Source: a virus
Strand: one strand, 5' to 3'
IMG/VR virus record: IMGVR_UViG_3300028384_000991
Coordinates: 92,564-156,563 of that record
Length of the DNA stretch: 64,000 nt
The notes below the pieces were generated by a model that saw only the letters and a program-made list of their open reading frames with translations, had not been told where the DNA came from and made no database searches. Each line of letters opens with the position of its first letter. The first letter of the stretch is position 1. The position numbers and the translations under genes were made by a program. Positions 43,801 through 61,443 of this stretch are shown piece after piece.

Positions 43801-46800
43801 TACGTGAACGTTGATACTTGTTCTGTAAGTGCGCCGTTGTTAACAACAATACCGTAACCTAAATCGTTAACCTGTGTATAGTCGTTTGCCAACATTGAAG
43901 TGTTACCAGCACTTTGTAGTACAATATCTGTAAAGTCTGCAAATTGGAAACCTGCTCCATCACCCGATGTTGGATTTAGAAATAGTGTTGCAGTACCTGC
44001 CGCTTGGTCATAGTTTGTAACAGCATCAACTTGATAACGCACACCTTGAATATAAAACGGACATGGTGTTTCTGGACGACGTTGTCTTAGTCCACTACCA
44101 ACACCACTTGATACGTTTAGTGTAAATGCATCATCTTTGCTAACAACAGTCATTGTTAGGTTAGATGTAAAGTTATCAATGTACATACCACCTGCGAATA
44201 CTTGTTTGTTTTGTGATTTACTAAACGATCCACAAACCTGTACGTAAGGCGATTTAATTAGAATCTGTCCATCTGGGTCAAGTACTTGAGCAAAACCACC
44301 GTGACCTTGCATTGTAACGTTCATGATTCTGTTTGAATCGTTCATCATGAACACATCAATTTCGTCGTTGTTCTTAGGTGGATTGTAATTAGTATCAAAT
44401 GCAAATTTAACACAGTCAATCAAGTTGTTGTGGTTAGTTAATGCATTAGATTCTGCTACTGCTTGTGCTGTAGTATTCTGTGTTACAGTTGATTGTCTAC
44501 TATCTGCAAATGCTGTTTTTGCTAATACTGCCGCACCAATTGTTTTAATGTAGTTGATTGCATCAGCAGTTTCTGTTTCTTGTCCACTAACCGCGCCTTT
44601 GTAATATGCCGCTTGGTTTGCAAGTGAACTTACTCTGCCACCATCGGTTAAGTCGCTTACTAATCCATCAACAATTAGTCCTGTATCTCTACGACACTTG
44701 CTTTCGTTGTATGTAAGTACAGGATAAGTTGCATTGATATATGCAATAGTTTCTTCAACAATAAATTCTTTGTTTAATTGAATCAACTCAGCGGCATTTG
44801 GAAATTCTCCAGGATTATCAGAACCACTTGATCCTTGGTTAACTGCTTTGGTAGGATCAACAGTATAATGATAACCGTAACGTGGATCTACCAAGTCAGG
44901 TAAGTTTCCTAAGCCGTTATTGATAACATCAATAATGTTGTTCATTAGTGTTGTTGCACGAGTATCTGTACCAGTTTCAAATGCACTTAAACCTGTTGTT
45001 TGGCTTGTTACAGTTTGTAATGGTGTGTATGCGGCCTGTGGTAAAATTGTGTTTACTACGAGGTCTCTTGTAAATGCATTCGCGGCCGCTGTTTGTGCTT
45101 CTTGTCCGTTAATTAGACTTTGTGTACCTACATAATACTTCGCCGCATTTTCATAAGTTTTAGCATTACCATTGTATTTGATATCGTGTGCAATACCATC
45201 GAGAATAATTCCTACATCTCGTTCACACTTTGCTTCGTTGTATGTGAAACCATCCCAAATGCTACCAGGTGTTGCACCTGCAATTTCGTTTGTAATAAAT
45301 TGAATTGTTTCGTCTTTGATGAATTCTTTGTTTTGCTGAATCAATGCTACAGCATTAGGATTATTAGTAGGTAATAATTCTAACCCATCAAAGTTTGCAT
45401 CTCTGTAGAAGTATGTGTTAATCCATTTTGATTGTGATGCTCTACGTGCCGGACGAATCTGACAACGTCTAAAGTCCGTGCCTTTGATAGAACAGTTTGC
45501 TGGTAACTTGATTGGGAAGTCTTCGTAGTAGATACCCGATTCTACGTGAATACAAATTTGTGTTGTATTTGTAAAGTTACCGTATTCAAATCTTTCTTCA
45601 TTTACAAATGTCTTTGGCTCAATTAATTGAACACGAATTGTATCTTCGTTTGCACCACGTGTGTATTTTACAATTCTACCCAATGCTCCTGATGTTTTAC
45701 CTCTTAAAATTTTACCTGGTAAAATATCAACATTGTTTGGAGCGCCTTGGTCAACATATCCTGCACCGCCGTTTTCAACAACCAATGTTACAGTTGAACC
45801 TTCAATCAATGTAGTTGTATCAAGTGTACCTAATCCGTTTTCAATAATGTTTGTTGAAATGTCAATTTTAGAAAGCACTGCATTTCTTACAGTAGATGTA
45901 ACTGTTTGATTAGTGTCAATAACTTGTGTAATACCATCTGTATTTCTTACAGGAGCAACAGTACCGTTCTGTAAAATAATATTAATAATTGTTTTACCGT
46001 AGTTGATACCAGCAAGTGTTTCGCTTAACTGTGTAGTTCTTGCAATTTGTCCCGATACTGAACTGTAATATCTTTTACCTACTTGGATTGCATGGAAGTT
46101 TGCATTAAGACCGTTTTCGATATCAATTGCAAGACCGTCAACAATGTATCCCATATCTCTTTCACAAATAGATTCATTGTATTGAAAATCTGGATATGTT
46201 TGATTAATATACGCAACAATTTCTTTTTGAATAAATGCTTTGTTTGCTCTTAGCAGTGTTGCCGCAGGTACACCATCTGTGTGTTCAGATGTAATGCTTT
46301 GTGAATTAATTACTGAGTCGGCAGAGCCATCACCATACGTAACTGTTTGTACATATGCACCTGGTTCAAGTGGAGCAGTTAAAATAAGTTCTTCTGCTTT
46401 TTCACAAGCCTTAGCAACAGTTTTATAAGCAAATTGTAACGAACGTCCTTCTTTACCTACTGGTGAAAATTCCTGTGAGTCGTCTCCATTTGTTCTAACA
46501 TATAAATCAACAATGGAAGTAAAACTTGAATTGTCTACATAAAATTTAGAAGCCGCCTGTAAATCATCTACATCATTTGGTGTCCCACTGCCTGCAAGGT
46601 TACCTGGATGGTCATGCAAGTAAAGTGGACCTGTCATGTCATCACCCTGTCTACGTACAGTAGCACTTCTTGGTAATGCTTCTGTGCTTAGGTATGAACC
46701 GTATAACGCACTGTTGTAATCATTGTCAACTAAAGTATGATCGCCTCCAGGATTACCTGAAGCGCCTTGGTTTGCACTAATTTTATTTGTGTTTGCAATA

Positions 46801-47531
46801 GCATCGCCTGCTGTTGGGTGCAAACTCAATTGGTTAGCATTTACAAATCTTACATAATAAACTGTGTTGTCTGTAAGTTCTGGAGCCGCACTACCTCCAC
46901 TTACTTCGTACTTGAAAGGTGTTCCGTTAATATTATGATCAAAACCATGTCCTGCAACAATTAAATTATTGTTGATGAAACTACCAATTGTAAGAGTGTA
47001 CTCAGAACCATCAGCAGGTTCTGATCTCATTCTGTTTGCAGTAAAACGTTTCTGATAACTTACATCATTGTATTTTTTATCAGCAACAAGATCGCCTACT
47101 TGAATATTTGTGCTGTGAGTTGTGTTAAATGCTGTTGCTGAAGCATCAGTAATAGGACCAATGTTACCTAATGTATATTGTCCAGAGCCATCAAGGAAAC
47201 CGCCAATCTGTGGTTGTAAGTCTGAATTAATTCTACCACCACTGTTTGTAATAACAAGTTGATCTGGATCAGTGTTGTCTACAAGAATACCAGGACCACC
47301 TACAACGTTTTTCATTAACAGTGAAGAACCACTGTCGTTTGAAACTGGAATCTTGTTTGCACCTAATTCATCTGGTGTGTCTGAAAGTGCTGTAAAACGA
47401 ATTGTTCCACCTTGTCCAAATACTGCATAAAGTTCTGAAAAGTTTTCGTTAGTTTTACTAAACGCATCACGGATACTATCACCCGTTGCGTCATTTCCTT
47501 CAACACCGATATTAATCACTCGTTTTGGCAT
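40866..47531 (-). CDS. Giant tail fibre/baseplate-associated virion protein (2221 aa)
   Basis: gp9/10-like N-terminal motif; three helical repeats; C-terminal YADLAENY...GRVPV...GTVIGKAL chaperone-like domain. Confidence 0.75.
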   Translation of the reverse strand: MPKRVINIGVEGNDATGDSIRDAFSKTNENFSELYAVFGQGGTIRFTALSDTPDELGANKIPVSNDSGSSLLMKNVVGGPGILVDNTDPDQLVITNSGGRINSDLQPQIGGFLDGSGQYTLGNIGPITDASATAFNTTHSTNIQVGDLVADKKYNDVSYQKRFTANRMRSEPADGSEYTLTIGSFINNNLIVAGHGFDHNINGTPFKYEVSGGSAAPELTDNTVYYVRFVNANQLSLHPTAGDAIANTNKISANQGASGNPGGDHTLVDNDYNSALYGSYLSTEALPRSATVRRQGDDMTGPLYLHDHPGNLAGSGTPNDVDDLQAASKFYVDNSSFTSIVDLYVRTNGDDSQEFSPVGKEGRSLQFAYKTVAKACEKAEELILTAPLEPGAYVQTVTYGDGSADSVINSQSITSEHTDGVPAATLLRANKAFIQKEIVAYINQTYPDFQYNESICERDMGYIVDGLAIDIENGLNANFHAIQVGKRYYSSVSGQIARTTQLSETLAGINYGKTIINIILQNGTVAPVRNTDGITQVIDTNQTVTSTVRNAVLSKIDISTNIIENGLGTLDTTTLIEGSTVTLVVENGGAGYVDQGAPNNVDILPGKILRGKTSGALGRIVKYTRGANEDTIRVQLIEPKTFVNEERFEYGNFTNTTQICIHVESGIYYEDFPIKLPANCSIKGTDFRRCQIRPARRASQSKWINTYFYRDANFDGLELLPTNNPNAVALIQQNKEFIKDETIQFITNEIAGATPGSIWDGFTYNEAKCERDVGIILDGIAHDIKYNGNAKTYENAAKYYVGTQSLINGQEAQTAAANAFTRDLVVNTILPQAAYTPLQTVTSQTTGLSAFETGTDTRATTLMNNIIDVINNGLGNLPDLVDPRYGYHYTVDPTKAVNQGSSGSDNPGEFPNAAELIQLNKEFIVEETIAYINATYPVLTYNESKCRRDTGLIVDGLVSDLTDGGRVSSLANQAAYYKGAVSGQETETADAINYIKTIGAAVLAKTAFADSRQSTVTQNTTAQAVAESNALTNHNNLIDCVKFAFDTNYNPPKNNDEIDVFMMNDSNRIMNVTMQGHGGFAQVLDPDGQILIKSPYVQVCGSFSKSQNKQVFAGGMYIDNFTSNLTMTVVSKDDAFTLNVSSGVGSGLRQRRPETPCPFYIQGVRYQVDAVTNYDQAAGTATLFLNPTSGDGAGFQFADFTDIVLQSAGNTSMLANDYTQVNDLGYGIVVNNGALTEQVSTFTYYCHAAYMANNGSQIRSLNGSNSNGNYGLVAAGSDPNEVIDQITLVEKMVQTARVYDDGAGIINEAGKNIVYVYDVDYIPTNISEIEIDHGGSTGIVRYEVASIQTTSETPVAGASRNGNIYKLNISGNDGLALALSNNQKVIIRQLQNFVFDNLEETAVIRPSTAIVFDEQDDFTYRTIAFNGTDAVGQALPGANQQLVTFDSNYDYIRMIVNQDYVSDTTYAPSGTQGATAGDTVIAITTLTEQSEINRLNNGDMLFAWDGKTHRILSYSQKADYGLITIEDVSDINDAALGDTIVAAGLNTPVSSTDAITLRVGLANGENAGLTVNISVARATGHDFNDIGSGGFNTSNYPSKIFGAPQEPQQANEVQERDKGRVFYVSTDQDGFFRVGRFFTVDQGTGRVTFAASIALSNLDGIGFKRGVVITEFSSDDGMTDNAVDSVPTESAVRGYINRRLGIDETSQAVTNPIGAGFIARDGSTSPTANISFSNNNLTALGDPGDPFDATNKRYVDGRTPFGDSLMYGTGANGTRDNNDIIIWTGSNWDTATPTGYFEFTYNAADKTVATGIADGSIVNADVNAGAQIAQSKLNMQAAGVRATAAGITQGNLGLAVFDSVVFSSNNGFISIDDGQLPIEKLANIPDDSVIGRAQGDSATGDVSAIPFSTIVESGGTFTTIGAPSAIVKTHTDGSINVQALEVDSARIIDTSGTTVNFTNPSTTLFLSSQTTGGGTTNNNMIGNLNIGNAKSAESTFQNNSALAGENYIAADWTYTSFVEAPGEGDNSSTGIGIGANTGFTSADQIGFVTGGTARLVVTDTTMLPGETDVYDLGSTLKRFQNVYAISTSAQANTALYADLAENYLADADYEIGSVLIFGGEQEVTVTSMKDDTRVAGVVSEKPGYLMNAGAEGDHVTAIALQGRVPVNVVGVVRKGDMLVTASVPGYAIASQDPKVGTVIGKALQAKEDPGYGTIEAVVGRV

Positions 47532-47540
47532 ATGTTACCC

Positions 47541-47867
47541 CTAAAATCCTATTGACTCACCACAACCGCAACTTGATGTTGAAGCAGGGTTTTCTATTGT
47601 AAAGTATGATCCGAATACTTCTTTTTTATAGTCTATTGTGCTACCTATCAAATACATTATGCTGGCACTGTCCATAGCAAACTCTCCGTTGTCAAGTTTA
47701 ATAACTTCATCATCAAACTCTTTGCTATCGTCTAAAGTCCAGTCATATTTGAATCCAGCACAACCTCCGCCTTTTAAACTTAAACGCACTATTGGTTTAT
47801 TGTGTTCTTTAAGCATACTGTTCATATGCTCTACAGCGTTTGGCGTTAGTTTTACTATATCCGTCAT
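47541..47867 (-). CDS. iscA: A-type Fe-S carrier (IscA/ErpA/HesB family)
   Basis: GGGCAGFKY, NP...SCGCGES. Confidence 0.92.
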   Translation of the reverse strand: MTDIVKLTPNAVEHMNSMLKEHNKPIVRLSLKGGGCAGFKYDWTLDDSKEFDDEVIKLDNGEFAMDSASIMYLIGSTIDYKKEVFGSYFTIENPASTSSCGCGESIGF

Positions 47868-47931
47868 ACTTCCTTCTCCTATGTATTTATTATATTTTCT
47901 GTAATCCGAATGTAATTAGGTAAATAAATGT

Positions 47932-48219
47932 ATGTTTGTTAGAACAGAACAAGAAGTCAAATGGTACGTTAGAAAATCTAAAAAAGGAAAAACACACCCT
48001 TACAAGCGTGTAAAGACTGTGGTTATATTTGAGTGTGACAGTTGCCACGAAGAATTTAAGCGTGACAAGGGCAAAGTTGATTCTAAAAGATTAGATAATT
48101 CATACAACCATGTGTGTCCAAGTTGCGATCCTAAACGCTTCGCTCAAAAGAAAGGCGTCGAACAAAGACGCAAGTTGAACACAACGGTTGATGTTTTAAT
48201 GACTATTGATCAATTATAA
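47932..48219 (+). CDS. Small basic Zn-finger-like protein
   Basis: CDSC...HVCPSC; TAAATA 5 nt upstream. Confidence 0.7.
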   Translation: MFVRTEQEVKWYVRKSKKGKTHPYKRVKTVVIFECDSCHEEFKRDKGKVDSKRLDNSYNHVCPSCDPKRFAQKKGVEQRRKLNTTVDVLMTIDQL

Positions 48220-48393
48220 TTACTCAGACTTCCAAATAGTCCAAGCACCATATGCGATTGCCGCATATGCAAGTAGTCCTGCTAAGGGTTTAGCAATCAG
48301 CACAACGATACCTAATGCAATAAGCATTGCACCGTCCCAAGATGTTCTCTCTGTGAAACGCTTTGCTACCCAGCCTTTAAATTTGTCTAACAT
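48220..48393 (-). CDS. 57-aa membrane protein (not in ORF track)
   Basis: MLDKFKGWVAKRFTERTSWDGAMLIALG...AWTIWKSE with AAGGAG SD. Confidence 0.7.
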   Translation of the reverse strand: MLDKFKGWVAKRFTERTSWDGAMLIALGIVVLIAKPLAGLLAYAAIAYGAWTIWKSE

Positions 48394-48404
48394 ATTCTTC
48401 TCCT

Positions 48405-48644
48405 TTACTTATTAAGTGACTTCATATGTTTGTGTAACTCGTTCACTAACTTATCTTTAGTAAGTCTGCGATCAAGTTCGATACCATGTTTTCTGCCCAT
48501 TTGCTCTAACTTAACTTTAGTTTCTTTTTTAAGTTCTGCTTTTGAAGGTACAAGAATTAATGGTTTCTTTTTCGCTACGTGATCAGAAAGTTTTTGAGTT
48601 TTTTCTTCACCCGCGCCGAAAATCTTTTTAATCCAATTTAACAC
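48405..48644 (-). CDS. Basic protein with Rho-N/HeH-like motif
   Basis: TKVKLEQMGRKHGIELDRRLTKDKLVNEL. Confidence 0.6.
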   Translation of the reverse strand: MLNWIKKIFGAGEEKTQKLSDHVAKKKPLILVPSKAELKKETKVKLEQMGRKHGIELDRRLTKDKLVNELHKHMKSLNK

Positions 48645-48645
48645 G

Positions 48646-49194
48646 TTATTCTCCTTTTGTAAGTGTAATTACTCCACAGGCAAGTCTATCGCCTGCATTT
48701 CCGGTTTCTAATGATTCTGCATCTCCGCCTTTTCCGAGGTCGTCTTCGTTTTCATGTATGACTATTGCTCTGCCTACGATGCTTCTTTCGCCTATCAAAT
48801 CAATTCTTTTTGCTTGAATTGTGAACTCAGCGATCCCGTCTGAGTTTGCTTGAACATTGCCCAAATCACCGACATGGCCGTTTTCGAGATCGCCATGCTC
48901 CACACTATCGGGGTTGTAATGGCTTCCAGCACTTTCACAACCGTTGGATAGGTCTCCGTATTCATGGACATGAAAACCATGAAGTCCTTCTTTCAAACCA
49001 GTTATTCTACCCTTTATAAGTGTAGCAGTGCCTGGCTTTTGCATGAATAAAATAGTGCCTTTAACAGTATCTGAATGGACTAAGTCACATACAGCCGTAA
49101 CTGCTTCTTCTGCTTCTACTATTTGTTTCAGGCTTTCACACTGACAAGTTCTTGAGCGTGTTCTTTTACAATCTGTGAGTTGTCTAAATCGCAT
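48646..49194 (-). CDS. sodC: Cu/Zn superoxide dismutase with CTS-like N-terminal extension
   Basis: GFHVHE, GC.SAGSHYNP, HVGDLGN, VIHE..DDLG, GNAGDRLACG. Confidence 0.93.
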   Translation of the reverse strand: MRFRQLTDCKRTRSRTCQCESLKQIVEAEEAVTAVCDLVHSDTVKGTILFMQKPGTATLIKGRITGLKEGLHGFHVHEYGDLSNGCESAGSHYNPDSVEHGDLENGHVGDLGNVQANSDGIAEFTIQAKRIDLIGERSIVGRAIVIHENEDDLGKGGDAESLETGNAGDRLACGVITLTKGE

Positions 49195-50121
49195 ACAGTA
49201 TTTAGCCCATAATCGTGTAGTCTAATGCTGGCAAGGTTCTTAGCCTTAGACTCGACCATAATATCTGCACGATCGTTAAATGATAGAGCCCAGTCATTAA
49301 CTGCTGAATTCCACATAAAATCACTGTGAGCACGAAGTTTTGCTTTCTTGTAACCCTGCATTAGCAGATATTCCATGTCTGGTAATTCGTTGTTAGGCCA
49401 TTCTGTAAGTAGATCTTCACGTGATACTGAGTAATGAATAACAGGACGCACACCACGCCATGATTCAATCACGCGGTCAAATCTACGGTCGGTTGGTAGA
49501 ATGTATTCTCCTGTACGCACCCAGTGATGGTGTATGTCAAGAACGAGTGCGACGTGCTTTTCAAGTTCGAGACTTGCGTCGAGTCCCCAGGACATTTCGT
49601 CAATTGCATTTAAAGTCTTGAAATGAGTTGCCGTATCCCATCCACCTGATGACATCCACATGATATTCAAACTCCTCTATACTTCTATTTACAATATCAG
49701 GATTATCTGACGCAAGTACAGTAAACTGACCAGGGTGCATAGACAACCTAACATCAAGTTCACGAGCCGTTGCGCCGACGTGAGCGAAGTGCTTCTCACA
49801 ATATTGTCGTACATCAGGCTTGCGCCAGAAGTAAGACCAAGTAGGCTCAGTATAAACAGGTAGTACGTCACTTCCCAACCTAACCATTCTAAGTTCATTT
49901 GGTAAACTCCCTACGTATCTAATCAAGTTCTCATATGACTTGATATTGTGGACCATGATATCCCAAAGTCTTTGTTCAGCAACTTCACGTGTTTGTCTAT
50001 TAAGCCAAGCAACAGTTGTTGAACGTGTGTTAAGCGGACGCTGAATCTCCTCAAGAAGTTTCTTCTTCTGAGTTTGATCAGGGTGCATATACTTACAAGC
50101 AAAACCAATACGTTTAATCAT
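49128..50121 (-). pseudogene. uvsE: UV-damage endonuclease UvsE, disrupted by a frameshifting deletion at about 49600
   Basis: IGFACK, RLGSD, SMHPGQF in one frame ending FKCN-stop; DEMSWG, LDIHHHW, HYS, RAHSD, MVESKAK in another frame. Confidence 0.8.
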
Positions 50122-50818
50122 AGTCTTTTAATATATTCCAAGTTTCTTTATAGTCTTGTATATTATAACAAAAACCTCTACCTTTGTCAAGTATAACTTT
50201 CTTTAAAGGATAGTCGTTACCTTCTGTGTGCATAGCATCACCAAAAAAGTGTAGTTCTTCATTGTCATCAAAATATTTCAAAATCTGTGATTTATCGCTA
50301 TGCTTTCTTGAAATATCAATTCCTGTTTCACCGCCAACCTTTGCATCAACATATTCGAATCTATCTTTGAGCATCTTAGCAATAGTATTACGTTCATTTG
50401 TTTGCTTATCAAATTTAGCATATAGCATACGTTCGCCTAATGTTGCATTACGTCCTACAATACTAAAATTACACATACCTGGACGATGTTCAAAATGTAG
50501 ACCAGTGCGTAGTACAAACTTGCTTTCTGTTAAAAAGCCTGTTAACCATTCGTGTACATCTTCTGGCAATGTCCAATCGTCTGTGTAAATATTCTTTTTA
50601 CTTTGCCATACATCACTACCATTACAATTAAAAACAGTATGACACATATTATAAGTGTCTTCTCCTAATTGTTCTATGGTTTTTGGTTTGTCACTTCCTG
50701 TGACTAAAGATACTTTGTTCTTACGACAAAAGTTATTAAAAAATGTTTTAAACTCTGAATTTATATTTTGTCTACTTGGTGTAAGTGTTCCGTCTACATC
50801 AAATATAAAGTGTTTCAT
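50114..50818 (-). CDS. Phosphomannomutase, HAD-IIB (PMM2/Sec53-like)
   Basis: FDVDGTLTPSR, VTGSD, FEHR.GM.NFS.VGR, GG...IDI, FFGD...GNDY. Confidence 0.85.
   Translation of the reverse strand: MKHFIFDVDGTLTPSRQNINSEFKTFFNNFCRKNKVSLVTGSDKPKTIEQLGEDTYNMCHTVFNCNGSDVWQSKKNIYTDDWTLPEDVHEWLTGFLTESKFVLRTGLHFEHRPGMCNFSIVGRNATLGERMLYAKFDKQTNERNTIAKMLKDRFEYVDAKVGGETGIDISRKHSDKSQILKYFDDNEELHFFGDAMHTEGNDYPLKKVILDKGRGFCYNIQDYKETWNILKDYD
50162..50190 (-). promoter_or_regulatory. Consensus sigma70 promoter for uvsE
   Basis: tgtcaa at 50185-50190, attata at 50162-50167. Confidence 0.75.
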
Positions 50819-51513
50819 TTCCAGTTGTCCTTGCACCATTGATCGACGCAGTTGTGTGGATGAGGTTCTCCGTGAAACACTGCGACACAGGTTTCAGGTT
50901 TAATTTTAGGTTCTCCTGGAATAACAAAATTTCTAACACCGTTGATTCGTGTCATTTCAGGTTTGCCTCGCATTTCCCATTTGTAACTTTGAATCCATTC
51001 ATCAGGCCAAAAACAAAAATCATTTCTTACTTGACTATAGATCCAATCTTGGTCTCCATGCATACGTTTTGTTGCAACAAACTGTTGCTCAACAAAATTT
51101 TTCCATACGTGATCTTGTGTACCTGACTTTAGTCTAAACACACTCGAGTTCATCTTTTTCCAGTCTGGTCTTAGGTGCCTATTAAAATCTTTACAGATAC
51201 AAAACTTATCTTCATTGTATGTAAACAAATGATCAATATTATTGAAAATAATTACATCAAGGTCGAAGTAAAGAATATTACCATTAATAGAAAGATTAGG
51301 ATCAAAGAACATAGGTTTGTACCACCATCCAGTAATCGGAAGACTTGGCAGTGGTAAAACCCTAATGCCTGCTTGTATACCTGCAGAGTTATCTGTGTAA
51401 CAAACAAATTCATATGGAACAGTGGTATTTCGTGCAACCATGTTGGCCAACACGTTTACATATTCTGCACTATATTTGTCGCCCCACTTAAGGCATACAA
51501 CATAGTTCTTCAT
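50815..51513 (-). CDS. GT-A fold glycosyltransferase
   Basis: CLKWGDKY, YFDLD (DxD), NSSV, GDQDWI, VFHGEP. Confidence 0.8.
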   Translation of the reverse strand: MKNYVVCLKWGDKYSAEYVNVLANMVARNTTVPYEFVCYTDNSAGIQAGIRVLPLPSLPITGWWYKPMFFDPNLSINGNILYFDLDVIIFNNIDHLFTYNEDKFCICKDFNRHLRPDWKKMNSSVFRLKSGTQDHVWKNFVEQQFVATKRMHGDQDWIYSQVRNDFCFWPDEWIQSYKWEMRGKPEMTRINGVRNFVIPGEPKIKPETCVAVFHGEPHPHNCVDQWCKDNWK

Positions 51514-51516
51514 TGT

Positions 51517-51966
51517 TTAACCTTCGTAGATTGCTGAATTTGCGCCGTGCTCTGCACATTCGACTTTTACACAATAACAACGATTGTTTGTCTGTTCTCT
51601 AATAAGTTTGTCAGCAAAATTAAATGCGTGTTCTGCAAACTTCTCTGCACCCACACCGTCAAAGATACGTAGTTCTGCTAAACCTTTTCTTTCAAGTTCA
51701 CGCATAGTTCTCATTTCTGGATCTGCTGAATCAACTACAACTTTGTGATCAAAACTATCTTCGAGCCATGCCTTCAAAGGTTTAAGTCCACCAAAGTCAA
51801 CTGCCCAGTTTTTGTTATCCAAATGATCACAACCAAATGTAAATGTAAATGCTAAACTGTAACCATGTAGCAAATGACAGTGTGAGTGATCTGCGTTTGG
51901 CTGTCTAAAGACTGCCGAAAGGCCAATGTTATGACCATAGTGTTTTGTGCTATAATGTTTTGCCAT
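51517..51966 (-). CDS. queD: 6-carboxy-5,6,7,8-tetrahydropterin synthase (QueD/PTPS)
   Basis: CHLLHGY, VDFGGLK, FDHK, G.EKFA, E..ANSA. Confidence 0.88.
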   Translation of the reverse strand: MAKHYSTKHYGHNIGLSAVFRQPNADHSHCHLLHGYSLAFTFTFGCDHLDNKNWAVDFGGLKPLKAWLEDSFDHKVVVDSADPEMRTMRELERKGLAELRIFDGVGAEKFAEHAFNFADKLIREQTNNRCYCVKVECAEHGANSAIYEG

Positions 51967-51972
51967 TTTTAT

Positions 51973-52020
51973 CTCCTATATAATAATGGCGGCAGAATTA
52001 GAAGGGTTGACGCCAAGTCC
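51973..52020 (-). promoter_or_regulatory. GC-rich structured 5' leader of queD, candidate pseudoknot or riboswitch-like element
   Basis: Stem UGGCG/CGCCA; loop CUUCUA complementary to SD UAGGAG. Confidence 0.4.
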
Positions 52021-52032
52021 TTTATTCTATAT

Positions 52033-52061
52033 ATTATAGAATATTTTTTATTCTTTGTCAA
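52033..52061 (-). promoter_or_regulatory. Consensus sigma70 promoter for queD
   Basis: tgtcaa at 52056-52061, attata at 52033-52038, 17-nt spacer. Confidence 0.8.
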
Positions 52062-52689
52062 CCGGTAAATGTCCATAATGATGCATTTTGGCGGCTACAA
52101 GAGGAATTAGTTTTTTACGCATTGTATTGAAACTTACAGTAATTCTTTTGTCTGTTGGATTTGGATCAGTTCTGTGTTCAAGCCAACTTGGAAAAATCAA
52201 CAGCAATCCTGTGCGTGGCATACAACTTGCAAAATAACTGCTGTATGGATTTTGATTTTCAAACACGTCATTCATTCTTAAAGGACGCAAAGGTGATTCA
52301 AAAATTAGTGGACAACTGCCTTCATCAACATATGGATAGAATGCGCCACTAACAACACTACCTTCGTGCCTGTGTTTATCAACGTGTCCGTCTTTGCCTA
52401 AAACATTAAACCAACTTGTGCCTAAGATACTTTCTTCAAGTCCTGCATCTTGGCAGTATAAATCAATACAATTTTGTATATCTGCTCTTAATTTTTTTAG
52501 TTCTGGATTGAACAGAAATTCTTCGTCACCGTTAATAAAACTGCTGGTGCCTCCAATGATTAATCCATGGTCACCAGTTTCGTAGTTTTCAATTATTTCT
52601 AAACACTTTTTAATTTCACTATGATCGCTTAGATCAAATGCACTTACAAGTGTAGGAAATAGTGATAGATTTTCTTGGTTATACATCAC
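52048..52689 (-). CDS. Putative 2OG-Fe(II) oxygenase
   Basis: LFPT, SWFN, HRH, SGAFY, FPSWLEH, RITVSFN. Confidence 0.85.
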   Translation of the reverse strand: MMYNQENLSLFPTLVSAFDLSDHSEIKKCLEIIENYETGDHGLIIGGTSSFINGDEEFLFNPELKKLRADIQNCIDLYCQDAGLEESILGTSWFNVLGKDGHVDKHRHEGSVVSGAFYPYVDEGSCPLIFESPLRPLRMNDVFENQNPYSSYFASCMPRTGLLLIFPSWLEHRTDPNPTDKRITVSFNTMRKKLIPLVAAKMHHYGHLPVDKE

Positions 52690-53293
52690 TATAGTTTAAC
52701 ATCTCTTTGAACTGTGTCAAGTTATAAAATGATACATTTTCCATTTTCCAACTGTCGGGCATTTTCCATCCTTCTTGATTAAAGATTCTAAATTGTTTGT
52801 CGGAATATCTTTCAAATAGTTTTGAAATTTGATGAATCCAGAAACTTGGGTCTACTGCACGAGAATCTGCACTTTCGTAATTTGGTGTACCTTTGTAGAT
52901 ATTGTTTACAGTATTAGTTTTGCTGTGTAAGTCGAATCCTAACAAATCTATAGTTTCGTCACCTTTTGATAAAAGACAACCTATAAAAACAGCATACGGT
53001 CCACTGCCCCAATGAAATGGCTGATCCTTTTTTTGATCAGTTGAATACCAAAGTGGTGGAACAGCATTTATATTGTGCTTACCTGCAAATTCATCCTGCC
53101 AATCAGTTCTTGTCCAAATTCCTGATTTAAGATTAACGTATTTCTTAACTACTTCACGTACCATGCGTCTGTCACAACATACAATATGTCGTACTTTCGC
53201 TTCTCTGAAAATAGCATTACAGCCTACTTTTACGCAGTCTATATTATCTAATTTAATGCCTTTACGGCTTTCTCCGTTACCAATTATGAGCAT
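52679..53293 (-). CDS. Rossmann-like protein (Maf/MptE/sialyltransferase-like signature)
   Basis: IIGNGESR, GCNA, SGPYA, LLGFD. Confidence 0.5.
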   Translation of the reverse strand: MLIIGNGESRKGIKLDNIDCVKVGCNAIFREAKVRHIVCCDRRMVREVVKKYVNLKSGIWTRTDWQDEFAGKHNINAVPPLWYSTDQKKDQPFHWGSGPYAVFIGCLLSKGDETIDLLGFDLHSKTNTVNNIYKGTPNYESADSRAVDPSFWIHQISKLFERYSDKQFRIFNQEGWKMPDSWKMENVSFYNLTQFKEMLNYSDV

Positions 53294-53296
53294 ACG

Positions 53297-53311
53297 GTAT
53301 TTAATAAATAC
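53297..53311. promoter_or_regulatory. Palindromic divergent late-promoter pair GTATTTA-A-TAAATAC
   Basis: Inverted TAAATA motifs between divergent genes. Confidence 0.6.
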
Positions 53312-53337
53312 ATATAACGATAGGAAAAATACTGGCT

Positions 53338-56300
53338 ATGCCTACAGCAATACACGACATATTTAGATTTATTAAACTTTATTCACCCGATGGAAGCACT
53401 CTTGAGCAGACTCTTGAGGCAGATGCTATCAATGATACCTTACAAATGCGTAGAGGTGATGGTGTAAGTTGGAGTGTACCAACAACATCACCAGGAGGCA
53501 CTATTGCTGTAACTGTAGGATTTCATACTGGTACAGGACAAGCAACAGGTGCATTTTATCTTGACGGAACAGAACGTAACACTATAACGCTGGTTAAAGG
53601 ACAAACATATATCTTTGATCAAAGCGATGCATCGAATGCAGGATATGGTGGCTACAACCACCCTATGACATTTAGTAATACCGATGACGGTGCAGTAAGT
53701 GGTGCAATCAGTGGCGAAGAATATGCAACAGGAGTAACATATCTTATTGATGATAATCCTGTATCAAAGACAATTTATAGACAAGATTTTACAACCACAA
53801 CTAATAGAAAAATTAAAATTGAGTTGAATGACTCTGCTCCGGGTACACTTTATTATTGTTCACATGATAACATTGATCAAGGTGGTCAAATACTAACAAC
53901 TGCCGGCAATGATCTTATGATGATCAATGTGGACTACAGTTTAGATGTTCCTCCGGGTACAACAAACATAGAATTAACAGATGTTAATGCAGGAACTACA
54001 CACGTAGAATTATCCTCAGCAGGTGGCATCCAATTAACAAGAAAGAATGCAAACGAAATAGAAATCAGTTCTTTTGCTGTAGCAGAAATTGATACACTGC
54101 ATACTGTAACAACAAGAAACGCAATCACAACCAATAAACTCTATATGGAAGATATTGAAGTTGGCGATGTTACAAGTGCAACACAAGACGGCTTTGTATC
54201 TCCGAGTTCAGAATTCTTAGGAACTGGTAGGGTTGATGATGCTCTAAGACTTGCTGTTGATCAAAGAGAAATCACAACAAACACAGTAACGCAAACATTT
54301 ACATTTAATAGCCAAGCGGCACCAGGTGTGCTGAACTATACAATTGGTTATCAATTAGATAGCGGAACATCAGCAACTTCTGTAACAGCAAGTATTCAAA
54401 GATACAACACTGTAACAACTATCTGGGAAACATTAGATACAGTAAGTGGTATAGGCGGGATTCCATATGAAGTTTCCAATATGTACAACGAAGCAAGTGC
54501 TTCAGGCGGACAGTATAGAGTTGTGTTTAACATTGCAGGTAACACAGGAACTATTACTCTTGAACTTCAAGCATATTACGAAATTTTAGAAATTACAAAT
54601 AATCCTGTGCTTAGAACTGAAAGTGCAGTAGGTACATTAAGAACACGTGACCTTGCACCATTAGGTGTAAACGATATCGGTAGAGGCAGTGAGCCATATG
54701 ACAATGTATATGCTAATACATTCCATGGACACTTGGTAGGAACATTCGACGGTGATCTAACAGGATCGTTATACACAGATGATTCAACGCTATTAGTTGA
54801 TGCTACCAGCGGTACAATATATGGTTCTACTCTTGCAGATACTACATCAGTTATTGGCAACGTTGAGTTTGCAGACAATATAAAACTGATGATCGGTAAT
54901 TCAGATGATTTACAAATTTGGCACGACGGTCTTAACAGTTATATTAGAGATAATGGCACTGGAAAACTACGTGTTCAAACAAATCATTATCAATTATTAA
55001 ATGCGGGTGATAACAGTCCATTTATAGAAGCCACAAGCCTTGGCACTATTATCTATCATAATGGTTCAGATATAATTACAACCCAAACTACTGGGGCAGA
55101 TCTAAGAGGTAACTTAACGTTAACTGTACCATCAGGCACTGTAACAGCACCTGGAGGATTTTTTGGTGACTTAACTGGTTCAGTATTCGGACCAGACTCA
55201 ACTACTGTAATTGATAACAATGGTGTTGTTACAGGTGAAGTAAACAACGCAAACGTCGGCACAGGTAATCTTGATGCAGGAAATATCACAGACGGTATAA
55301 TGACAATTACAAATGGTGTAGGTACAGCATTTACAGAAATTGAATCTACACTGTTTGACGGTGTGCTTGAAGGTGATGTCTACGGCAATGATGGAACAAG
55401 TCAACTTGTAGACGCAACAGCAAATCAAATTGTTGGCGAAGTTAATGCAGATACAAACAAAACAGGTGCATTAACTATTGCATCTGATACAAGTGTTACA
55501 GTAAACGGTACTGGTGTAATTGCATTTAACAGTGGTGTGGGTGTTGATGCAAATGGTAAACTTGTAAACAGTTCTAATGCGGCACAACCATTTACTATTG
55601 GCAGTCCCGTTACTATTGAAAAAGAATTTAGAGCATTTCCAGGTGCTCAAGAAAAGCAGTTATATACAAATGTAACAACTGGAACTTATGCAATTGACAC
55701 CAGCGACACACAAAACGTTTATTGGAACCAACCAAGTGGTGCTCTTGTTGCTAACTTTACTAATTTAAACACTGATACACAAAGACAAAGACGTGTAAGA
55801 ATACACATCAACCAAGGCGGCACACCATTTATTCCTGACATTGAAATTAACGGTGTAACTCAAAGTGCTACTAATTTAGGTAATGGTGAAATTACAGGTG
55901 TTGCAAATCAATTAACAATTTTAGAATATACATTCTACAGAACACATACTAATGTTTGGGAAATCTATGTTCAGCAGATAGATGGAAGTAATCAATTTGA
56001 AACAAATATTACAGATCGAAATGTAACTGTAAACTTACAAGACAATCAAGCAGATGCTTTAAGTTTTGATACAGTAGGTAAAGCAGATATTCTAAAAATT
56101 ATTACAACAGATAGTGCAGAAGGTATTGAAAGTAGCGGTAATATCAAAGGAAATACACTGCAAGTTAATGATACAACCAGTGCTGTGACACAGTTAGTTG
56201 ATAAGACTACAGGTGTTACTGCTGACTTTGCAATGGGTAATATTGTACTAAACAATTCAAATCTTGTTGCAGGTGCAACTGCTGTGTTTACACTTACGTC

Positions 56301-56475
56301 TTCGTTTATCAATGCTAATAGTATGGTTATGGTAAATCATACCAGTGGAGGAACTATAGGATCGTATATGTTTAATACAACTCCAGCGGCTGGTACTTGT
56401 CAAATCCACGTAACAAATATATCAGGCGGACCGTTAGGTGAAGCCATTACTATTAAGTTTCTTGTTATTGGTTAA
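53338..56475 (+). CDS. Large virion/fibre-like protein (1045 aa)
   Basis: Thr/Gly/Asn-rich; GDLTGS..DDSTLLVD repeats shared with 40414..40866; DLQIWHDG.NSYIRD.GTG fibre motif. Confidence 0.7.
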   Translation: MPTAIHDIFRFIKLYSPDGSTLEQTLEADAINDTLQMRRGDGVSWSVPTTSPGGTIAVTVGFHTGTGQATGAFYLDGTERNTITLVKGQTYIFDQSDASNAGYGGYNHPMTFSNTDDGAVSGAISGEEYATGVTYLIDDNPVSKTIYRQDFTTTTNRKIKIELNDSAPGTLYYCSHDNIDQGGQILTTAGNDLMMINVDYSLDVPPGTTNIELTDVNAGTTHVELSSAGGIQLTRKNANEIEISSFAVAEIDTLHTVTTRNAITTNKLYMEDIEVGDVTSATQDGFVSPSSEFLGTGRVDDALRLAVDQREITTNTVTQTFTFNSQAAPGVLNYTIGYQLDSGTSATSVTASIQRYNTVTTIWETLDTVSGIGGIPYEVSNMYNEASASGGQYRVVFNIAGNTGTITLELQAYYEILEITNNPVLRTESAVGTLRTRDLAPLGVNDIGRGSEPYDNVYANTFHGHLVGTFDGDLTGSLYTDDSTLLVDATSGTIYGSTLADTTSVIGNVEFADNIKLMIGNSDDLQIWHDGLNSYIRDNGTGKLRVQTNHYQLLNAGDNSPFIEATSLGTIIYHNGSDIITTQTTGADLRGNLTLTVPSGTVTAPGGFFGDLTGSVFGPDSTTVIDNNGVVTGEVNNANVGTGNLDAGNITDGIMTITNGVGTAFTEIESTLFDGVLEGDVYGNDGTSQLVDATANQIVGEVNADTNKTGALTIASDTSVTVNGTGVIAFNSGVGVDANGKLVNSSNAAQPFTIGSPVTIEKEFRAFPGAQEKQLYTNVTTGTYAIDTSDTQNVYWNQPSGALVANFTNLNTDTQRQRRVRIHINQGGTPFIPDIEINGVTQSATNLGNGEITGVANQLTILEYTFYRTHTNVWEIYVQQIDGSNQFETNITDRNVTVNLQDNQADALSFDTVGKADILKIITTDSAEGIESSGNIKGNTLQVNDTTSAVTQLVDKTTGVTADFAMGNIVLNNSNLVAGATAVFTLTSSFINANSMVMVNHTSGGTIGSYMFNTTPAAGTCQIHVTNISGGPLGEAITIKFLVIG

Positions 56476-56777
56476 TTTTTAAGATCGTTTTTAAGTTTTT
56501 TAATTTCTTCTATAACGTATTCAAACTTTTCAGTTGTACGTTGAAGAAGTTTATTAAGATCTCTAACAGCATAGATTACCCACCACCACCAAGTAAATGC
56601 AACCACTGCAAAACTCAGTGCTACAAATCCAATAAAGTAATCTGTGTATGTTTCAAAGTCAAAGAATACGATAAGACACAATACTGTAAGAGCAGTCAAA
56701 GGTGCTACCTTACCTACCCAACTCCAAATAGTGACCTGTCGTGCGATTGAAATTTTTTCTTTTAGATTTTTAAACAA
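56472..56777 (-). CDS. Two-TM membrane protein
   Basis: Two hydrophobic segments plus coiled coil. Confidence 0.6.
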   Translation of the reverse strand: MFKNLKEKISIARQVTIWSWVGKVAPLTALTVLCLIVFFDFETYTDYFIGFVALSFAVVAFTWWWWVIYAVRDLNKLLQRTTEKFEYVIEEIKKLKNDLKN

Positions 56778-56780
56778 TGT

Positions 56781-57908
56781 CTACCCCTCAATATGACCAA
56801 AGGGTTTCCATTCTCCTGGTGTACCTTCACGTACACATATAAAGCCTATCCACCCACCTGGTACTGGTTCGTTATTCCAAATAATATCACCTTTGCTCCA
56901 TAACCCTGTGTCTGGAGCGGCACTTCCTCTTCCAAACTTCTTTCCTTCAAATTTGATTGGTCCTGCAACTTCAAAATTTGTGCTCGGATTAGAAACACCA
57001 AATCCCACTTTACCAAACACAGAAACTTTTGTTTCACTGTTACCTGCTTGACCGATGGTAACGTGTCCGTATGGTGAAATTGTAATTCTTGGTGTATTAT
57101 CAGTTATAACTTTTAGTTCAGATGTAGAATATGTTCCAAGTTTAACTGACTCGTGTTCCGGATCAACAATAAATTCTGCACGTTCACTGCTAATGCTTAA
57201 CTGTCCGTTTGGTGCTTCTGTACCAATAGACATACGCATTGATGCGCCGTCCCAGAATATAAAGTCGTCAACGTTTAAGTCCCCGTCAACAATCAATCCT
57301 TGTAGTCTGCCTACTGTGCGTAGACTTGAATTAGTAACTGTTTCGCCTAATGTTGTTGATGTAATAACAGGAACATTATCAATTTGATAAGATGCTTCTC
57401 TATGCAAATCAATTGATTCACTGCTATAAAGCCTTGAAGGGTTTGTTTGTAAGATAAACGATTTAATTGTACCTTCTCCTTGCCACACAAGACCCTTACC
57501 AATTGGAGAGTCTCCGTTGCTGGAGTCGAACATTAATGAATCGCTTCTTTGTTGCCTAATGTCAGCAGTAAGTTCATTTACGTGTAAACTGTTACACTCA
57601 AGATGTCCTTCTACTGTTAATGCACCTTGTACTGTTGTATCACCTGCAATATTATCTGTGTTTACAGTGTCAACAGTAATGCCATTGTTATCCACAAGCA
57701 AGATAGTTCTATTTGCATTATCAGCAATACCTGTACTACGGAATTGCGTGATCTTTCCACCCTGGATATGATTACCAGTTAACTGTCTTTCTTGAATAGG
57801 TTGCTGAGGCACAACACGATTTGCTATGATTTCAATAGCCTCACCGAGTTCTTGTAAACCTGCTTTTACCTTTAGGATTTCATTATTGTCAATGTCATTG
57901 TACTGCAT
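56781..57908 (-). CDS. Tail fibre-like protein
   Basis: SSLRTVGRL..L.V.G, GKVGFGVSNP, C-terminal GDIIWN..P..GGWIGFIC...GTPGEWKPFG. Confidence 0.7.
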   Translation of the reverse strand: MQYNDIDNNEILKVKAGLQELGEAIEIIANRVVPQQPIQERQLTGNHIQGGKITQFRSTGIADNANRTILLVDNNGITVDTVNTDNIAGDTTVQGALTVEGHLECNSLHVNELTADIRQQRSDSLMFDSSNGDSPIGKGLVWQGEGTIKSFILQTNPSRLYSSESIDLHREASYQIDNVPVITSTTLGETVTNSSLRTVGRLQGLIVDGDLNVDDFIFWDGASMRMSIGTEAPNGQLSISSERAEFIVDPEHESVKLGTYSTSELKVITDNTPRITISPYGHVTIGQAGNSETKVSVFGKVGFGVSNPSTNFEVAGPIKFEGKKFGRGSAAPDTGLWSKGDIIWNNEPVPGGWIGFICVREGTPGEWKPFGHIEG

Positions 57909-57916
57909 ATTAGTAT

Positions 57917-59206
57917 TTATCTAACTGCCTTTAGAAGTATAGTATCCGGATTAATCCTTCCATTCAGTTTGATATCTACTGCATTTATTTCATCGAGATA
58001 AGTGTTCAGTTTACGTTTACCTGCGTCTTTGAATTCCTTTAATTTTTCTTCTGGTTTACGCAGTGTTTTTTGTATGCTTTTTTCTTCATCAAATTGTGTT
58101 ATTGTAGTACCTTTGACACTGAGTCCCGTACCTTCTCTTTCTGCGCCGAGTGGGTCAATTACCTTAGCAACGTATTTGCCAATTTTACGTGTTTTAGTAT
58201 TGAATACCCAAAGTTCATTACAGCCTATAATTTCAATAGGATTAACACTGGCTAACTGGAACTTGTCGTCATTGATAGCATACTTGAGTTTTGCAATCAA
58301 CTTTTCTTTGCTTCTTGGTTGTTTCTTACGCGGTTTACGCATTGCTTTTGCTGTGTTAATAACAACATCTAAAGCACCCATATAAAGTTCTAATGCATTT
58401 ACTTTTTTCTTAATCTCTGTTTTGCTGAAAATAGCATATGCTTCTTTTAATTGCGATGCCCAATCTTTTTCTTGGTCAGTAGCATCTGCCTTTAGTTTTG
58501 GTGGATCAAGAACTTCTTTGAGTTCTTTAATCTCAGGAGCATAATAATCTTTGATCTTACGTGCATGAGCCTGTGTAAGTTTAACTTCATAAAAATGCTT
58601 TTTAAAATCAAAACCTTTTGGATTAAACTTTGTTGCATCTTCCAACCAACTGTCTAACCACTCCTGTGGTTTTTCATCCATAAGCCAAGCCTGAGAAGTA
58701 ATACGTTCTTGAATTGTAGGAACATGAACGTTTGATTTCTTTTCTTCTTGTTTCTTTTTTTCTTCTGCTTCTGCTTGTGCAAATGCGTCTGCTTTGTATT
58801 TTAAATCTTCAAGCCATTTATCAATTGTTACATCTGCAGGTTTAGGAGTACCTGATGTTCCTGGCAACGATTCCCAGTACTTGTTATATGCTTCGTTTAC
58901 ATTAGGTCGCCCTAATGTAATCATACGACACATACCACCTAAGGTGCTATGAAATCTACTGTCAGGTATTTTAGCAAATCTATTTGCTTCTTTGACCCAT
59001 TTGTCTTTGCCACGCATATACTCAACAGTCCATAGTTTAAAGTCGCTGGACTTGCAATCTAATCTATAGTAATCGAGTGCGGCATGAATTCTTGAGCCGA
59101 AATCTTTGGGTTCTAACTTTTCCCAATCGTCCCATTGAGGTTCTTGTTTAGATACCTTTGGGGCTCTTACTACTTTTCTTTTTTTGCGAGGGGCTGTCAA
59201 AGCCAT
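57917..59206 (-). CDS. Lys-rich phage hypothetical protein
   Basis: 429 aa, AAGGAG SD, own promoter. Confidence 0.75.
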   Translation of the reverse strand: MALTAPRKKRKVVRAPKVSKQEPQWDDWEKLEPKDFGSRIHAALDYYRLDCKSSDFKLWTVEYMRGKDKWVKEANRFAKIPDSRFHSTLGGMCRMITLGRPNVNEAYNKYWESLPGTSGTPKPADVTIDKWLEDLKYKADAFAQAEAEEKKKQEEKKSNVHVPTIQERITSQAWLMDEKPQEWLDSWLEDATKFNPKGFDFKKHFYEVKLTQAHARKIKDYYAPEIKELKEVLDPPKLKADATDQEKDWASQLKEAYAIFSKTEIKKKVNALELYMGALDVVINTAKAMRKPRKKQPRSKEKLIAKLKYAINDDKFQLASVNPIEIIGCNELWVFNTKTRKIGKYVAKVIDPLGAEREGTGLSVKGTTITQFDEEKSIQKTLRKPEEKLKEFKDAGKRKLNTYLDEINAVDIKLNGRINPDTILLKAVR

Positions 59207-59230
59207 TCATAATCTCCTTAAGTTTTAGTT

Positions 59231-59258
59231 ATTATATATTAAAAAAAATAAAAGTCAA
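59231..59258 (-). promoter_or_regulatory. Sigma70-type promoter TTGACT-16-TATAAT
   Basis: agtcaa at 59253-59258, attata at 59231-59236. Confidence 0.6.
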
Positions 59259-59278
59259 CTAAAAATGGCTTCGAAGTT

Positions 59279-59527
59279 TTAATTTTTTGCAATTTTAGAA
59301 AACAAATTTAGAATTTGTTCCTTGTTTCTTGCTAACTGTTCTTTGCCTTCTTGCCAACTGTTGGCTTGATATTCTTTGATATCATTCCATTCATTAACAA
59401 CCCAACCTTTGATTTTCATTTCGATCGGTTTCTTTTCAGGTACTATTTCGTCTGCCATAGTTTTAGTCACTAATACTGCAAACACTATAGTAATAGCAAT
59501 AAACAAACTTACCATAAGTTTATTCAT
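59279..59527 (-). CDS. Small exported or membrane-anchored protein
   Basis: N-terminal hydrophobic signal; GAGGAGG SD. Confidence 0.65.
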   Translation of the reverse strand: MNKLMVSLFIAITIVFAVLVTKTMADEIVPEKKPIEMKIKGWVVNEWNDIKEYQANSWQEGKEQLARNKEQILNLFSKIAKN

Positions 59528-59741
59528 GTAGTTTACCTCCTCTCAATTTAAATTCCCTTTTTAAAAACCACTTGTTTTTATGAAAGTATTCCTTCAATTC
59601 ATACTCTGTAACTGGCCTATGTGTCCACGATAGCACTTCGTCTTTGTGTTTAAACCACATCTCCGATACAAAGTCCCGCCACGGATTTGGTTTAAAATCA
59701 AAAGTATAGTTACATTCTGTATGATTTTGTTTCTCTTCCAC
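59520..59741 (-). CDS. Hypothetical protein
   Basis: 73 aa ORF in array. Confidence 0.55.
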   Translation of the reverse strand: MEEKQNHTECNYTFDFKPNPWRDFVSEMWFKHKDEVLSWTHRPVTEYELKEYFHKNKWFLKREFKLRGGKLHE

Positions 59742-59853
59742 TTTTTTTATGCCTCCGCATTACTTGAGTCTTACCATCAGCAATATAGTATCCTGTTATT
59801 TCCCATTCATCTTTTTTCTTTTTAACAGTCTTTGCCTTTTTCTTTTTATGCAT
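59710..59853 (-). CDS. Small basic hypothetical protein
   Basis: MHKKKK start behind GAGG. Confidence 0.45.
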   Translation of the reverse strand: MHKKKKAKTVKKKKDEWEITGYYIADGKTQVMRRHKKSGRETKSYRM

Positions 59854-60928
59854 AGTCCTCTTTCTTAGGTACAAGGAACTCTTTAATGCCAATAAGATTT
59901 ACATAGGCTGAAATTGTGTCAATGTACCTATCAATATATGGTTGTTGCCTATATGGCATCCAAGGTTTACCTTCTTGGAGTCCTGTATAATCATATTGGA
60001 ATCTATAACACAATCTACCGTCGGTACTTCCTTGCCTACGGTGCTGAGTAATACTGTTATCAAACAAGCACAAGTCACCGTCTTGCTGATACCAATGATC
60101 GTAAATGTATTCATCTACACAAAGATCATTTCTAATTTTTTCAAGTAACTTATCTGCTTCGCCCTGCGACATACCTTTAATACCTGTAACAGTATTAAAA
60201 CTATAGTGTAATCCTGTATGTCCGCCGGGTGATGTAATTACCATTGGAATTTCTTCGTTCTCATGTGGCGCCATATTCTTGTACATTACATTGTCTTGAA
60301 CATCACGTAACCCTGGATTAATTTTTCCCGGAGTAAAGTTATGAATAGCAATCATTTCATCTAACTCACTACGGAAACTCTCCGAAACGCTTTCGTAGTA
60401 ATCTACAGTAGTTAAAAAGCCTGTAGAACTTGCTGTTGTTCCTTTGAATCCTAACAGTGCAACTCCTGGAGCAAAAGCAATGTTACCGCTTTCATTTGAG
60501 TGCCATAGTAACTCACCTTCAGCAAACATACCTAATGGTTTACCATCAGGAGTTTTTTCTCCCGACACTTTAATAATGTCTGCTTGTTCGTCATTGTTCC
60601 ATTCTCTAACACGAATGAATTCTTCAAGACACATACGATCTTCTGGAGACCACGTAGGATCACTCAGTGCCGTTTGTGCTCTACCATCCCAATGCGGGTA
60701 ACGTTCTCTAAAAATAGCATAGGTGCTAAATCTATCTCTACCCCACTTTTTCATAAAGCGAGTATAATGCGATACATCTTTAAAGTTGGTATTTCTAATA
60801 ATAGTAACTAATTCTTTAAGATGGATCTTGCCAATCTCATACCATTCTTCATCTGTAATGTTATCGAAATCTACATCATCGATAAACACTCCAAATCTAC
60901 CACAGCCTGGAATTTTAGATATCTTCAA
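59846..60928 (-). CDS. TauD/TfdA-family dioxygenase
   Basis: FGVFIDDVD, WHSNE, H.YQQDGDLCLFDNSITQHRR, RLCYR. Confidence 0.8.
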   Translation of the reverse strand: MKISKIPGCGRFGVFIDDVDFDNITDEEWYEIGKIHLKELVTIIRNTNFKDVSHYTRFMKKWGRDRFSTYAIFRERYPHWDGRAQTALSDPTWSPEDRMCLEEFIRVREWNNDEQADIIKVSGEKTPDGKPLGMFAEGELLWHSNESGNIAFAPGVALLGFKGTTASSTGFLTTVDYYESVSESFRSELDEMIAIHNFTPGKINPGLRDVQDNVMYKNMAPHENEEIPMVITSPGGHTGLHYSFNTVTGIKGMSQGEADKLLEKIRNDLCVDEYIYDHWYQQDGDLCLFDNSITQHRRQGSTDGRLCYRFQYDYTGLQEGKPWMPYRQQPYIDRYIDTISAYVNLIGIKEFLVPKKEDYA

Positions 60929-61408: not shown

Positions 61409-61443
61409 TTTATCCTTCTCTTTCTAAGTCCCAACGGACTACG

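Follow-up and report, generated by a model that had tools for sequence, protein, structure and literature searches.

The leader of a queD-like gene in a giant aquatic phage almost certainly holds a conserved cis-acting RNA structure, an H-type pseudoknot in which a covarying helix (P1) crosses a second covarying helix (P2) and which was found in several hundred viral contigs. We judge it slightly more likely than not, at roughly 0.52-0.55, that the leader acts as a riboswitch for a small molecule and switches queD translation ON; its ligand can be named only as a candidate. The stretch of DNA analysed here, referred to as the window, comprises the final 64 kb of a virus record that is 156,563 nt long and has a completeness estimate of 44%, and by gene content its source is a T4-like jumbo phage.

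The gene itself (51517-51966) lies on the minus strand, as do the promoter, leader and knot elements located below, and encodes a 149-aa QueD-like 6-carboxytetrahydropterin synthase that matches PF01242 (E 4.6e-14) and phrog_2389 (E 8.9e-40) and scores under the TIGR03367 cut-off. It belongs to a QueD subfamily in which CxxxHGY replaces the CxxxHGH signature, so that one zinc-binding histidine is swapped. This site is common to 447 of 449 homologous matches in the examined loci and is also present in QueD-like genes of cultured phages. The perfect promoter named in the original prediction is confirmed: the sigma70-type -35 box TTGACA (52056-52061) and -10 box TATAAT (52033-52038) are separated by 17 nt and agree with the consensus at 12 of 12 positions, one of only two such promoters in window positions 44000-62000, and the -35 box overlaps the 3' end of an upstream 2OG-Fe(II) oxygenase ORF. 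Judging from the sequence, transcription would start at about 52026-52027 and give a leader of about 60 nt. The leader quoted in that prediction proved exact to the letter; it carries the Shine-Dalgarno (SD) region UAGGAG at 51973-51978 and ends at the ATG of the 149-aa PTPS/QueD-family gene. Across the family, 46 of 126 distinct leaders have such a promoter no further than 70 nt from the knot.

Read from its 5' end, the knot begins with the P1 5' strand AAGG (52019-52022), followed by loop L1 (52016-52018), which consists of a variable base (A, U or C) and then a nearly invariant C and U. The P2 5' strand (52008-52015) comprises UGGCG (P2b), the invariant U of a U.C mismatch, and CA (P2a). 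Loop L2 (52006-52007) has a variable base and then an invariant unpaired C at 52006, directly before the P1 3' strand CCUU (52002-52005). Loop L3 (51995-52001) contains A and ends in A-Y-U-C, of which the A, U and C are invariant and likewise unpaired, and the P2 3' strand UG-C-CGCCA (51987-51994), which we regard as the switching strand, completes the fold. The strands were assigned by covariation and the loops from alignments. The UGGCG/CGCCA stem that had been noticed in the sequence alone corresponds to P2b and is indeed a covarying helix, extended by C-G and A-U pairs beyond the U.C mismatch. In the family as a whole, P1 has 3-5 bp of the form NNNGG/CCNNN, with the variants AGCGG/CCGCU, AGUGG/CCACU, AGAGG/CCUCU, ACCGG/CCGGU and AUCGG/CCGAU besides AAGG/CCUU here, while P2 has a variable helix of 4-5 bp, after which come the invariant U.C mismatch, one C-G pair and a further pair that is either A-U or G-C. 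P2a changes from CA/UG to CG/CG in one subtype (107 contigs). In the subtype of the studied leader P1 has only 3-4 bp and L3 is short.

On its own the studied leader folds no better than shuffled sequences (z = -0.83), and the case for the knot is comparative. In 39 leaders picked by protein, 89.6% of cells were paired and 10 of 12 pairs changed on both sides, with a covariation score of 0.560 versus 0.171 +/- 0.018 for shuffled alignments and at most 0.158 for slid ones. At the positions that the search pattern leaves free, 3 of 3 P1 pairs form in 87 of 94 distinct viral matches versus 3 of 47 chance matches in bacterial genomes, and at least 3 of 4 P2b pairs form in 78 of 94 versus 4 of 47; since the compared sequences are related, such counts overstate how many separate events occurred, yet chance pairing is unlikely given how many different pair types are seen. 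Conservation and covariation among orthologue leaders, which the original prediction had named as its check, are thus clear.

The conserved fold is not, however, the one first drawn. A riboswitch-like H-type pseudoknot had been proposed for the queD leader, and its layout, conservation and covariation stand, as do the candidates then named (a pterin or deazaguanine ligand, or a protein operator), but the true knot crosses P1 with P2 rather than P2 with a helix closed on the SD. In the earlier fold the SD (UAGGAG) was paired by CUUCUA (51999-52004), which shares CUU with the P1 3' strand. This pairing can form and makes 5-6 of its 6 pairs in 26 of 26 leaders of this subtype, but at least 5 pairs are present in only 24 of 128 others, and the one position free to vary is mispaired in 23 of 78 leaders, where no compensating change is seen. 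As a conserved second helix it was rejected, being limited to a subtype, never covarying and excluding the covarying P1. A ligand-bound knot built from P2 and the CUUCUA/SD pairing, with ligand turning queD OFF, would follow the feedback logic usual for preQ1 and would make use of the 5-bp CUUCU/AGGAG match found throughout a subtype with so short a P1. We nevertheless give this arrangement very little credence: it is missing in most other subtypes without compensatory change, it consumes bases of P1, and all 78 complete leaders of this very subtype keep the AGG 5' of the motif, though the pattern does not require it. Because P1 has just 3-4 bp here, the CUUCUA/SD fold may at most be the ligand-free OFF state of this one subtype.

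The P1 x P2 knot is closely tied to queD. The motif, of about 40 nt, occurs in 75 of the 80 viral loci with the closest QueD proteins; the other five comprise one truncated copy, one variant and three loci without it. When DNA was scanned by pattern, blind to gene content, nearly all matches stood before queD-like genes, including some whose QueD is as little as 36% identical. Matches to the patterns of two further subtypes stand directly before queD in 118 of 119 and 105 of 107 cases, and the remaining one and two are cut off by contig ends. A covariance model found a single copy per record in 20 of 23 uncultured records and no queD knot in three cultured jumbo phages. Neither this knot nor its folE counterpart (below) was present in the whole genomes of Phosso, PA5oct and Vibrio phage 2.275.O or in the examined loci of BUCT-ZZ01 and RHph_I1_18, and no further copies precede queE, dpdL or other genes in this genome and 22 related records. 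A pattern scan of 185,579 prokaryote genomes, which covered the commonest sequence form only and so left divergent bacterial forms outside, gave 50 matches, of which 47 lack the pairing and are ascribed to chance and three are true copies, on short metagenome-bin contigs with the look of phage fragments.

The knot stands beside phage-like genes on the short contigs L441, L461 and L468 in GTDB metagenome bins labelled Bacteroidetes, Nitrospira and Chitinophagales, which are probably mis-binned phage DNA and no guide to the host. At one locus (L135:6409-6830) it heads a cupin-queD operon, with the cupin gene between knot and queD, and at another (L186:4834-4870) it heads an inserted 216-aa ORF. 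These two cases suggest that the knot controls the first gene of the unit and not queD directly.

Contrary to the earlier proposal that the knot hides the ribosome site, folding of P1 x P2 is computed to free it, so that the likely sign is ON rather than OFF. In knot-free minimum-energy folds, 146 of 154 leaders have the P2 3' strand paired to the ribosome site or start codon, and in 96 of the 154 its partner is the start codon or the bases just after it. In the studied leader the anti-start-codon strand GCCAUU (51985-51990), which overlaps the P2 3' strand, pairs with AAUGGC (51962-51967); other subtypes use different pairings (CCUAUG/CAUAGG and GUCAUC/GAUGGC). The P2 3' strand reaches -6.91 kcal/mol with its own partner versus -5.49 +/- 0.10 kcal/mol with swapped partners. 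When only this strand is withheld from pairing, the ribosome site becomes easier to open, at a median cost of 4.56 instead of 7.40 kcal/mol; when only the remainder of the knot is withheld, the median is 8.07 kcal/mol. For the studied leader, which has the same sequence as L039, withholding the knot brings the cost from 4.77 down to 2.38. P2 lies 10-30 nt before the SD and competes with the SD or start-codon hairpin.

In the mechanism that we propose, the P2 3' strand would pair with the start codon or SD in the absence of the knot and block ribosome entry, whereas knot formation would capture it in P2 and open the ribosome site. A ligand with a guanine-like face could pair with the invariant C, stack between P1 and P2 and stabilise the knot as in preQ1-I. 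Translation should be ON when the knot is folded, because the P2 3' strand, once taken into P2, leaves the ribosome site open. This sign comes from nearest-neighbour models that leave out pseudoknots and presupposes that the knot is favoured by ligand. A purely structural element that binds no ligand, its co-transcriptional knot setting a fixed level or timing of translation or protecting the 5' end, would suit the computed energies, since P2 alone and the start-codon hairpin are of similar stability in the studied leader (-6.8 versus -5.7 kcal/mol) and folding order could decide between them. It would leave unexplained the invariant unpaired bases, the strict tie to two consecutive enzymes and the core shared with an oppositely wired knot before folE, and we consider it very improbable.

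This second knot is a mini-pseudoknot in the folE leader, at full-record positions 88399-88428 (minus strand; L081:4400-4429), 4.1 kb before the window. It consists of a 4-bp P1, a loop A-UCC-N-C and a linker ending in AACUC or AACAUC, then GGAG, and it is present in 68 of 80 folE orthologue loci. All four P1 pairs can form in 21 of 24 distinct copies, pairing that the pattern does not require, and all four covary in an alignment partly chosen by pairing; P2 (UCC/GGA) is invariant and so has no covariation support. Of the matches to the pattern, 101 of 116 in viral sequences and 115 of 120 in metagenomes precede folE, and the folE leader has no family in Rfam. Since P2 of this knot uses the SD itself, the folded form buries the SD and is, on this model, the OFF state.

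The two knots share the sequence U-C-X-N-C before the P1 3' strand and an L3 that ends in UC, followed by X'-G, with X pairing X' as A-U, G-C or C-G. A joint descriptor of this core matches just the queD and folE sites in the 156,563-nt genome, and gave one match in 10 resampled genomes. Both knots are present in 10 records; in at least 9 records that carry the queD knot, folE is present but the exact folE knot pattern is missing from it. The pocket floor is G-C at queD and C-G or A-U at folE, and L1 differs too, so the two knots may bind different things. Two minor observations concern folE-type leaders: in one of the 120 metagenome cases (contig L801) the knot precedes a 135-aa protein with a signal-peptide-like start, and many folE promoters keep CCTAAATA in their spacer, which may be a nested late-promoter box.

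The main rival to the riboswitch reading is a protein-bound translational operator, in which FolE, QueD, DpdL or a putative transglycosylase would stabilise both knots, repressing folE and activating queD so that the two enzymes stay in balance. T4-like phages are known to use protein-bound operators, a protein on both knots would give the same signs as a shared ligand, and the confinement of the motif to one phage clade is as expected if a phage protein is needed. The invariant unpaired C at the preQ1-I ligand-binding position speaks for a small molecule instead, as does the retention of the knot before QueD proteins only 36% identical and with a cupin gene inserted (L135); FolE, QueD and DpdL are moreover T-fold enzymes, which are not known to bind RNA. 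On balance we think a protein operator unlikely. A precedent is given in PMC10690425, in that T4 gp32 autoregulates through a leader pseudoknot, likewise a phage leader structure controlling translation. The gene 32 operator binds its own protein product and represses, whereas the queD and folE knots precede metabolic enzymes, and it has no demonstrated shared sequence with the queD knot.

Comparison with described RNAs placed the queD knot in no existing class. Rfam assigned no family to the window at the gathering threshold or to 20 diverse orthologue loci, and at E up to 10 the leader had no preQ1-I (RF00522) match. The freshwater-2 model (RF02980) matched the leader with 17.7 bits over the SD/start region only, far under its cut-off of 49.9 bits. 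SAM-II and SAM-V riboswitches have an H-type layout, but neither matched the leader at E up to 10 and the downstream gene is queD in nearly all cases. No phage queD or folE riboswitch was found described in the literature searched; an unnamed listing among the candidates of Weinberg 2017 or Fremin 2023 is possible, and is likeliest among the 10,000 viral candidates of the latter. The THF-II riboswitch (PMC9881143) also controls the FolE step, and reads pterins and 7-deazaguanine with one invariant C and one U. It differs in being a rod-like hairpin with an internal pocket, bacterial and OFF only, whereas the queD and folE elements are pseudoknots with crossing helices, and its Rfam model matched neither leader.

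The queD knot resembles preQ1-I (RF00522; types I-III are described in PMC8752633 and PMC11625349) as a small H-type knot with the order P1-L1-P2-L2-P1'-L3-P2', an A-containing L3 and control of a 7-deazaguanine-pathway gene. The G5-C18 floor pair has its equivalent in the P1 closing pair, which is G-C in 37 of 39 leaders, and the specificity C before the P1 3' strand is invariant in the queD-knot alignments. By analogy, the C at 52006 occupies the position of the preQ1-I specificity base and would take its role (PMC8752633, PMC11625349); the base before it is U in 91, A in 29 and C in 5 of 126 distinct motifs. In contrast, U6, the first L1 base, which reads ligand N9 in preQ1-I (PMC11625349), is not kept (U 47, A 42, C 37 of 126), and A30, which reads N2/N3, is replaced by the invariant U near the end of L3 in a register that is our own mapping. 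The queD knot also lacks the poly-A tract plus CUA, has a P2 of 6-7 bp that contains a U.C mismatch and excludes the SD, and occurs in phages without QueC. The folded preQ1-I knot occludes the SD or terminates (OFF), whereas the queD knot is predicted to be ON. As had been suspected from the sequence, the leader is therefore off the preQ1-I consensus, with no RF00522 match, and we do not class the knot as preQ1-I: layout, floor pair and specificity C are kept, while U6, A30, OFF wiring and Rfam score are missing.

In the cultured Vibrio phage 2.275.O (MG592671.1, L286:6741-6777), which has QueC and QueF, a preQ1-I-like sequence lies before folE in a QueF-QueC-folE block. It has the U after P1, the C before the P1 3' strand, the A-tract and the CUA, scores 12.5 bits with RF00522 against a gathering threshold of 39, and is a hint that preQ1-I-like folds occur in related phages. 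This weak match can be counted in favour of a preQ1-I-derived riboswitch that senses a base of the 7-deazaguanine type (CDG, 7-deazaguanine, or preQ0/preQ1 from the host), in which folE would be shut by end-product feedback and the queD knot would differ in sign or ligand. The retained layout, G-C floor pair and specificity C would suit such a descent, and C plus U are able to read preQ1 and 7-deazaguanine. The computed queD platform is ON, however, and a downstream product should not raise QueD; the equivalents of U6 and A30 are lost and the clade has no QueC. We regard a deazaguanine ligand as rather improbable.

Pathway logic points to a different ligand for the proposed riboswitch. FolE makes dihydroneopterin triphosphate, QueD turns this into CPH4, and QueE makes CDG (10.1101/2023.04.13.536721). 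A DpdL-like T-fold protein, a proposed CDG decarboxylase, is encoded at 1305-1748 on the minus strand, recognised by the motif LxxxHRHxF from the same source; it matches phiST and ACP17, and a gene with this motif is present in 23 of 23 records. No full QueC was found in these 23 records, an absence that is firm only for the 3-4 near-complete ones, most others being fragments. DpdL without QueC has been linked to a 7-deazaguanine end product, not preQ0/preQ1 (10.1101/2023.04.13.536721), which implies that the clade does not make preQ1. If one ligand is shared, OFF at folE together with ON at queD fits only an intermediate between both enzymes, since an end product would turn both knots off and GTP would turn both on. 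GTP was ruled out on this logic, as it would not turn folE off.

The best single ligand candidate, put forward tentatively, is accordingly a pterin intermediate: 7,8-dihydroneopterin triphosphate, which FolE makes and QueD consumes, or a dephosphorylated form of it. One molecule would then slow its own synthesis (folE OFF) and speed its own use (queD ON), and QueD would drain the host folate precursor only when that precursor is in surplus. It is possible, though doubtful, that the two knots form a phage-specific riboswitch class for this compound, used twice with opposite wiring as an OFF knot of about 25 nt at folE and an ON knot of about 40 nt at queD. An invariant C and U are present in the queD knot and may contact the ligand. 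This pair is not specific to pterins, because besides reading pterins and 7-deazaguanine in THF-II (PMC9881143) it also reads preQ1 in preQ1 classes II and III (PMC11625349); by the same analogy, the invariant C is suited to any guanine-like face.

If the riboswitch reading is true, nature would have produced, in the queD leader, a preQ1-I-like fold whose pocket is altered and whose sign is reversed, and few known aptamers would be as small as the folE form. We know of no validated virus-only riboswitch. Two knots of opposite sign on either side of one intermediate point to that compound as the ligand, and would show how jumbo phages meter the drain on a host folate precursor while modifying their DNA, with flux divided between folate synthesis in the host and base modification of the phage DNA.

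Two further regions of the window deserve mention. The block at 18-3965 on the minus strand encodes a GT-B-like protein, the DpdL-like protein, a 182-aa unknown and a 489-aa protein; it has homologues in PA5oct, Paride and Phosso and may point to a sugar-decorated deazaguanine. The 489-aa protein (2496-3965), which we take to have TGT-like motifs, gave no Pfam, PHROG or PDB match and is not claimed as DpdA. Just downstream of queD lie genes for a phosphomannomutase of the PF03332 (eukaryote-type) family (50114-50839) and a Cu/Zn superoxide dismutase (48646-49194), and a UvdE-like UV endonuclease on the minus strand appears to be split across two overlapping ORFs (49600-50121 and 49128-49670), by a frameshift or an assembly error.
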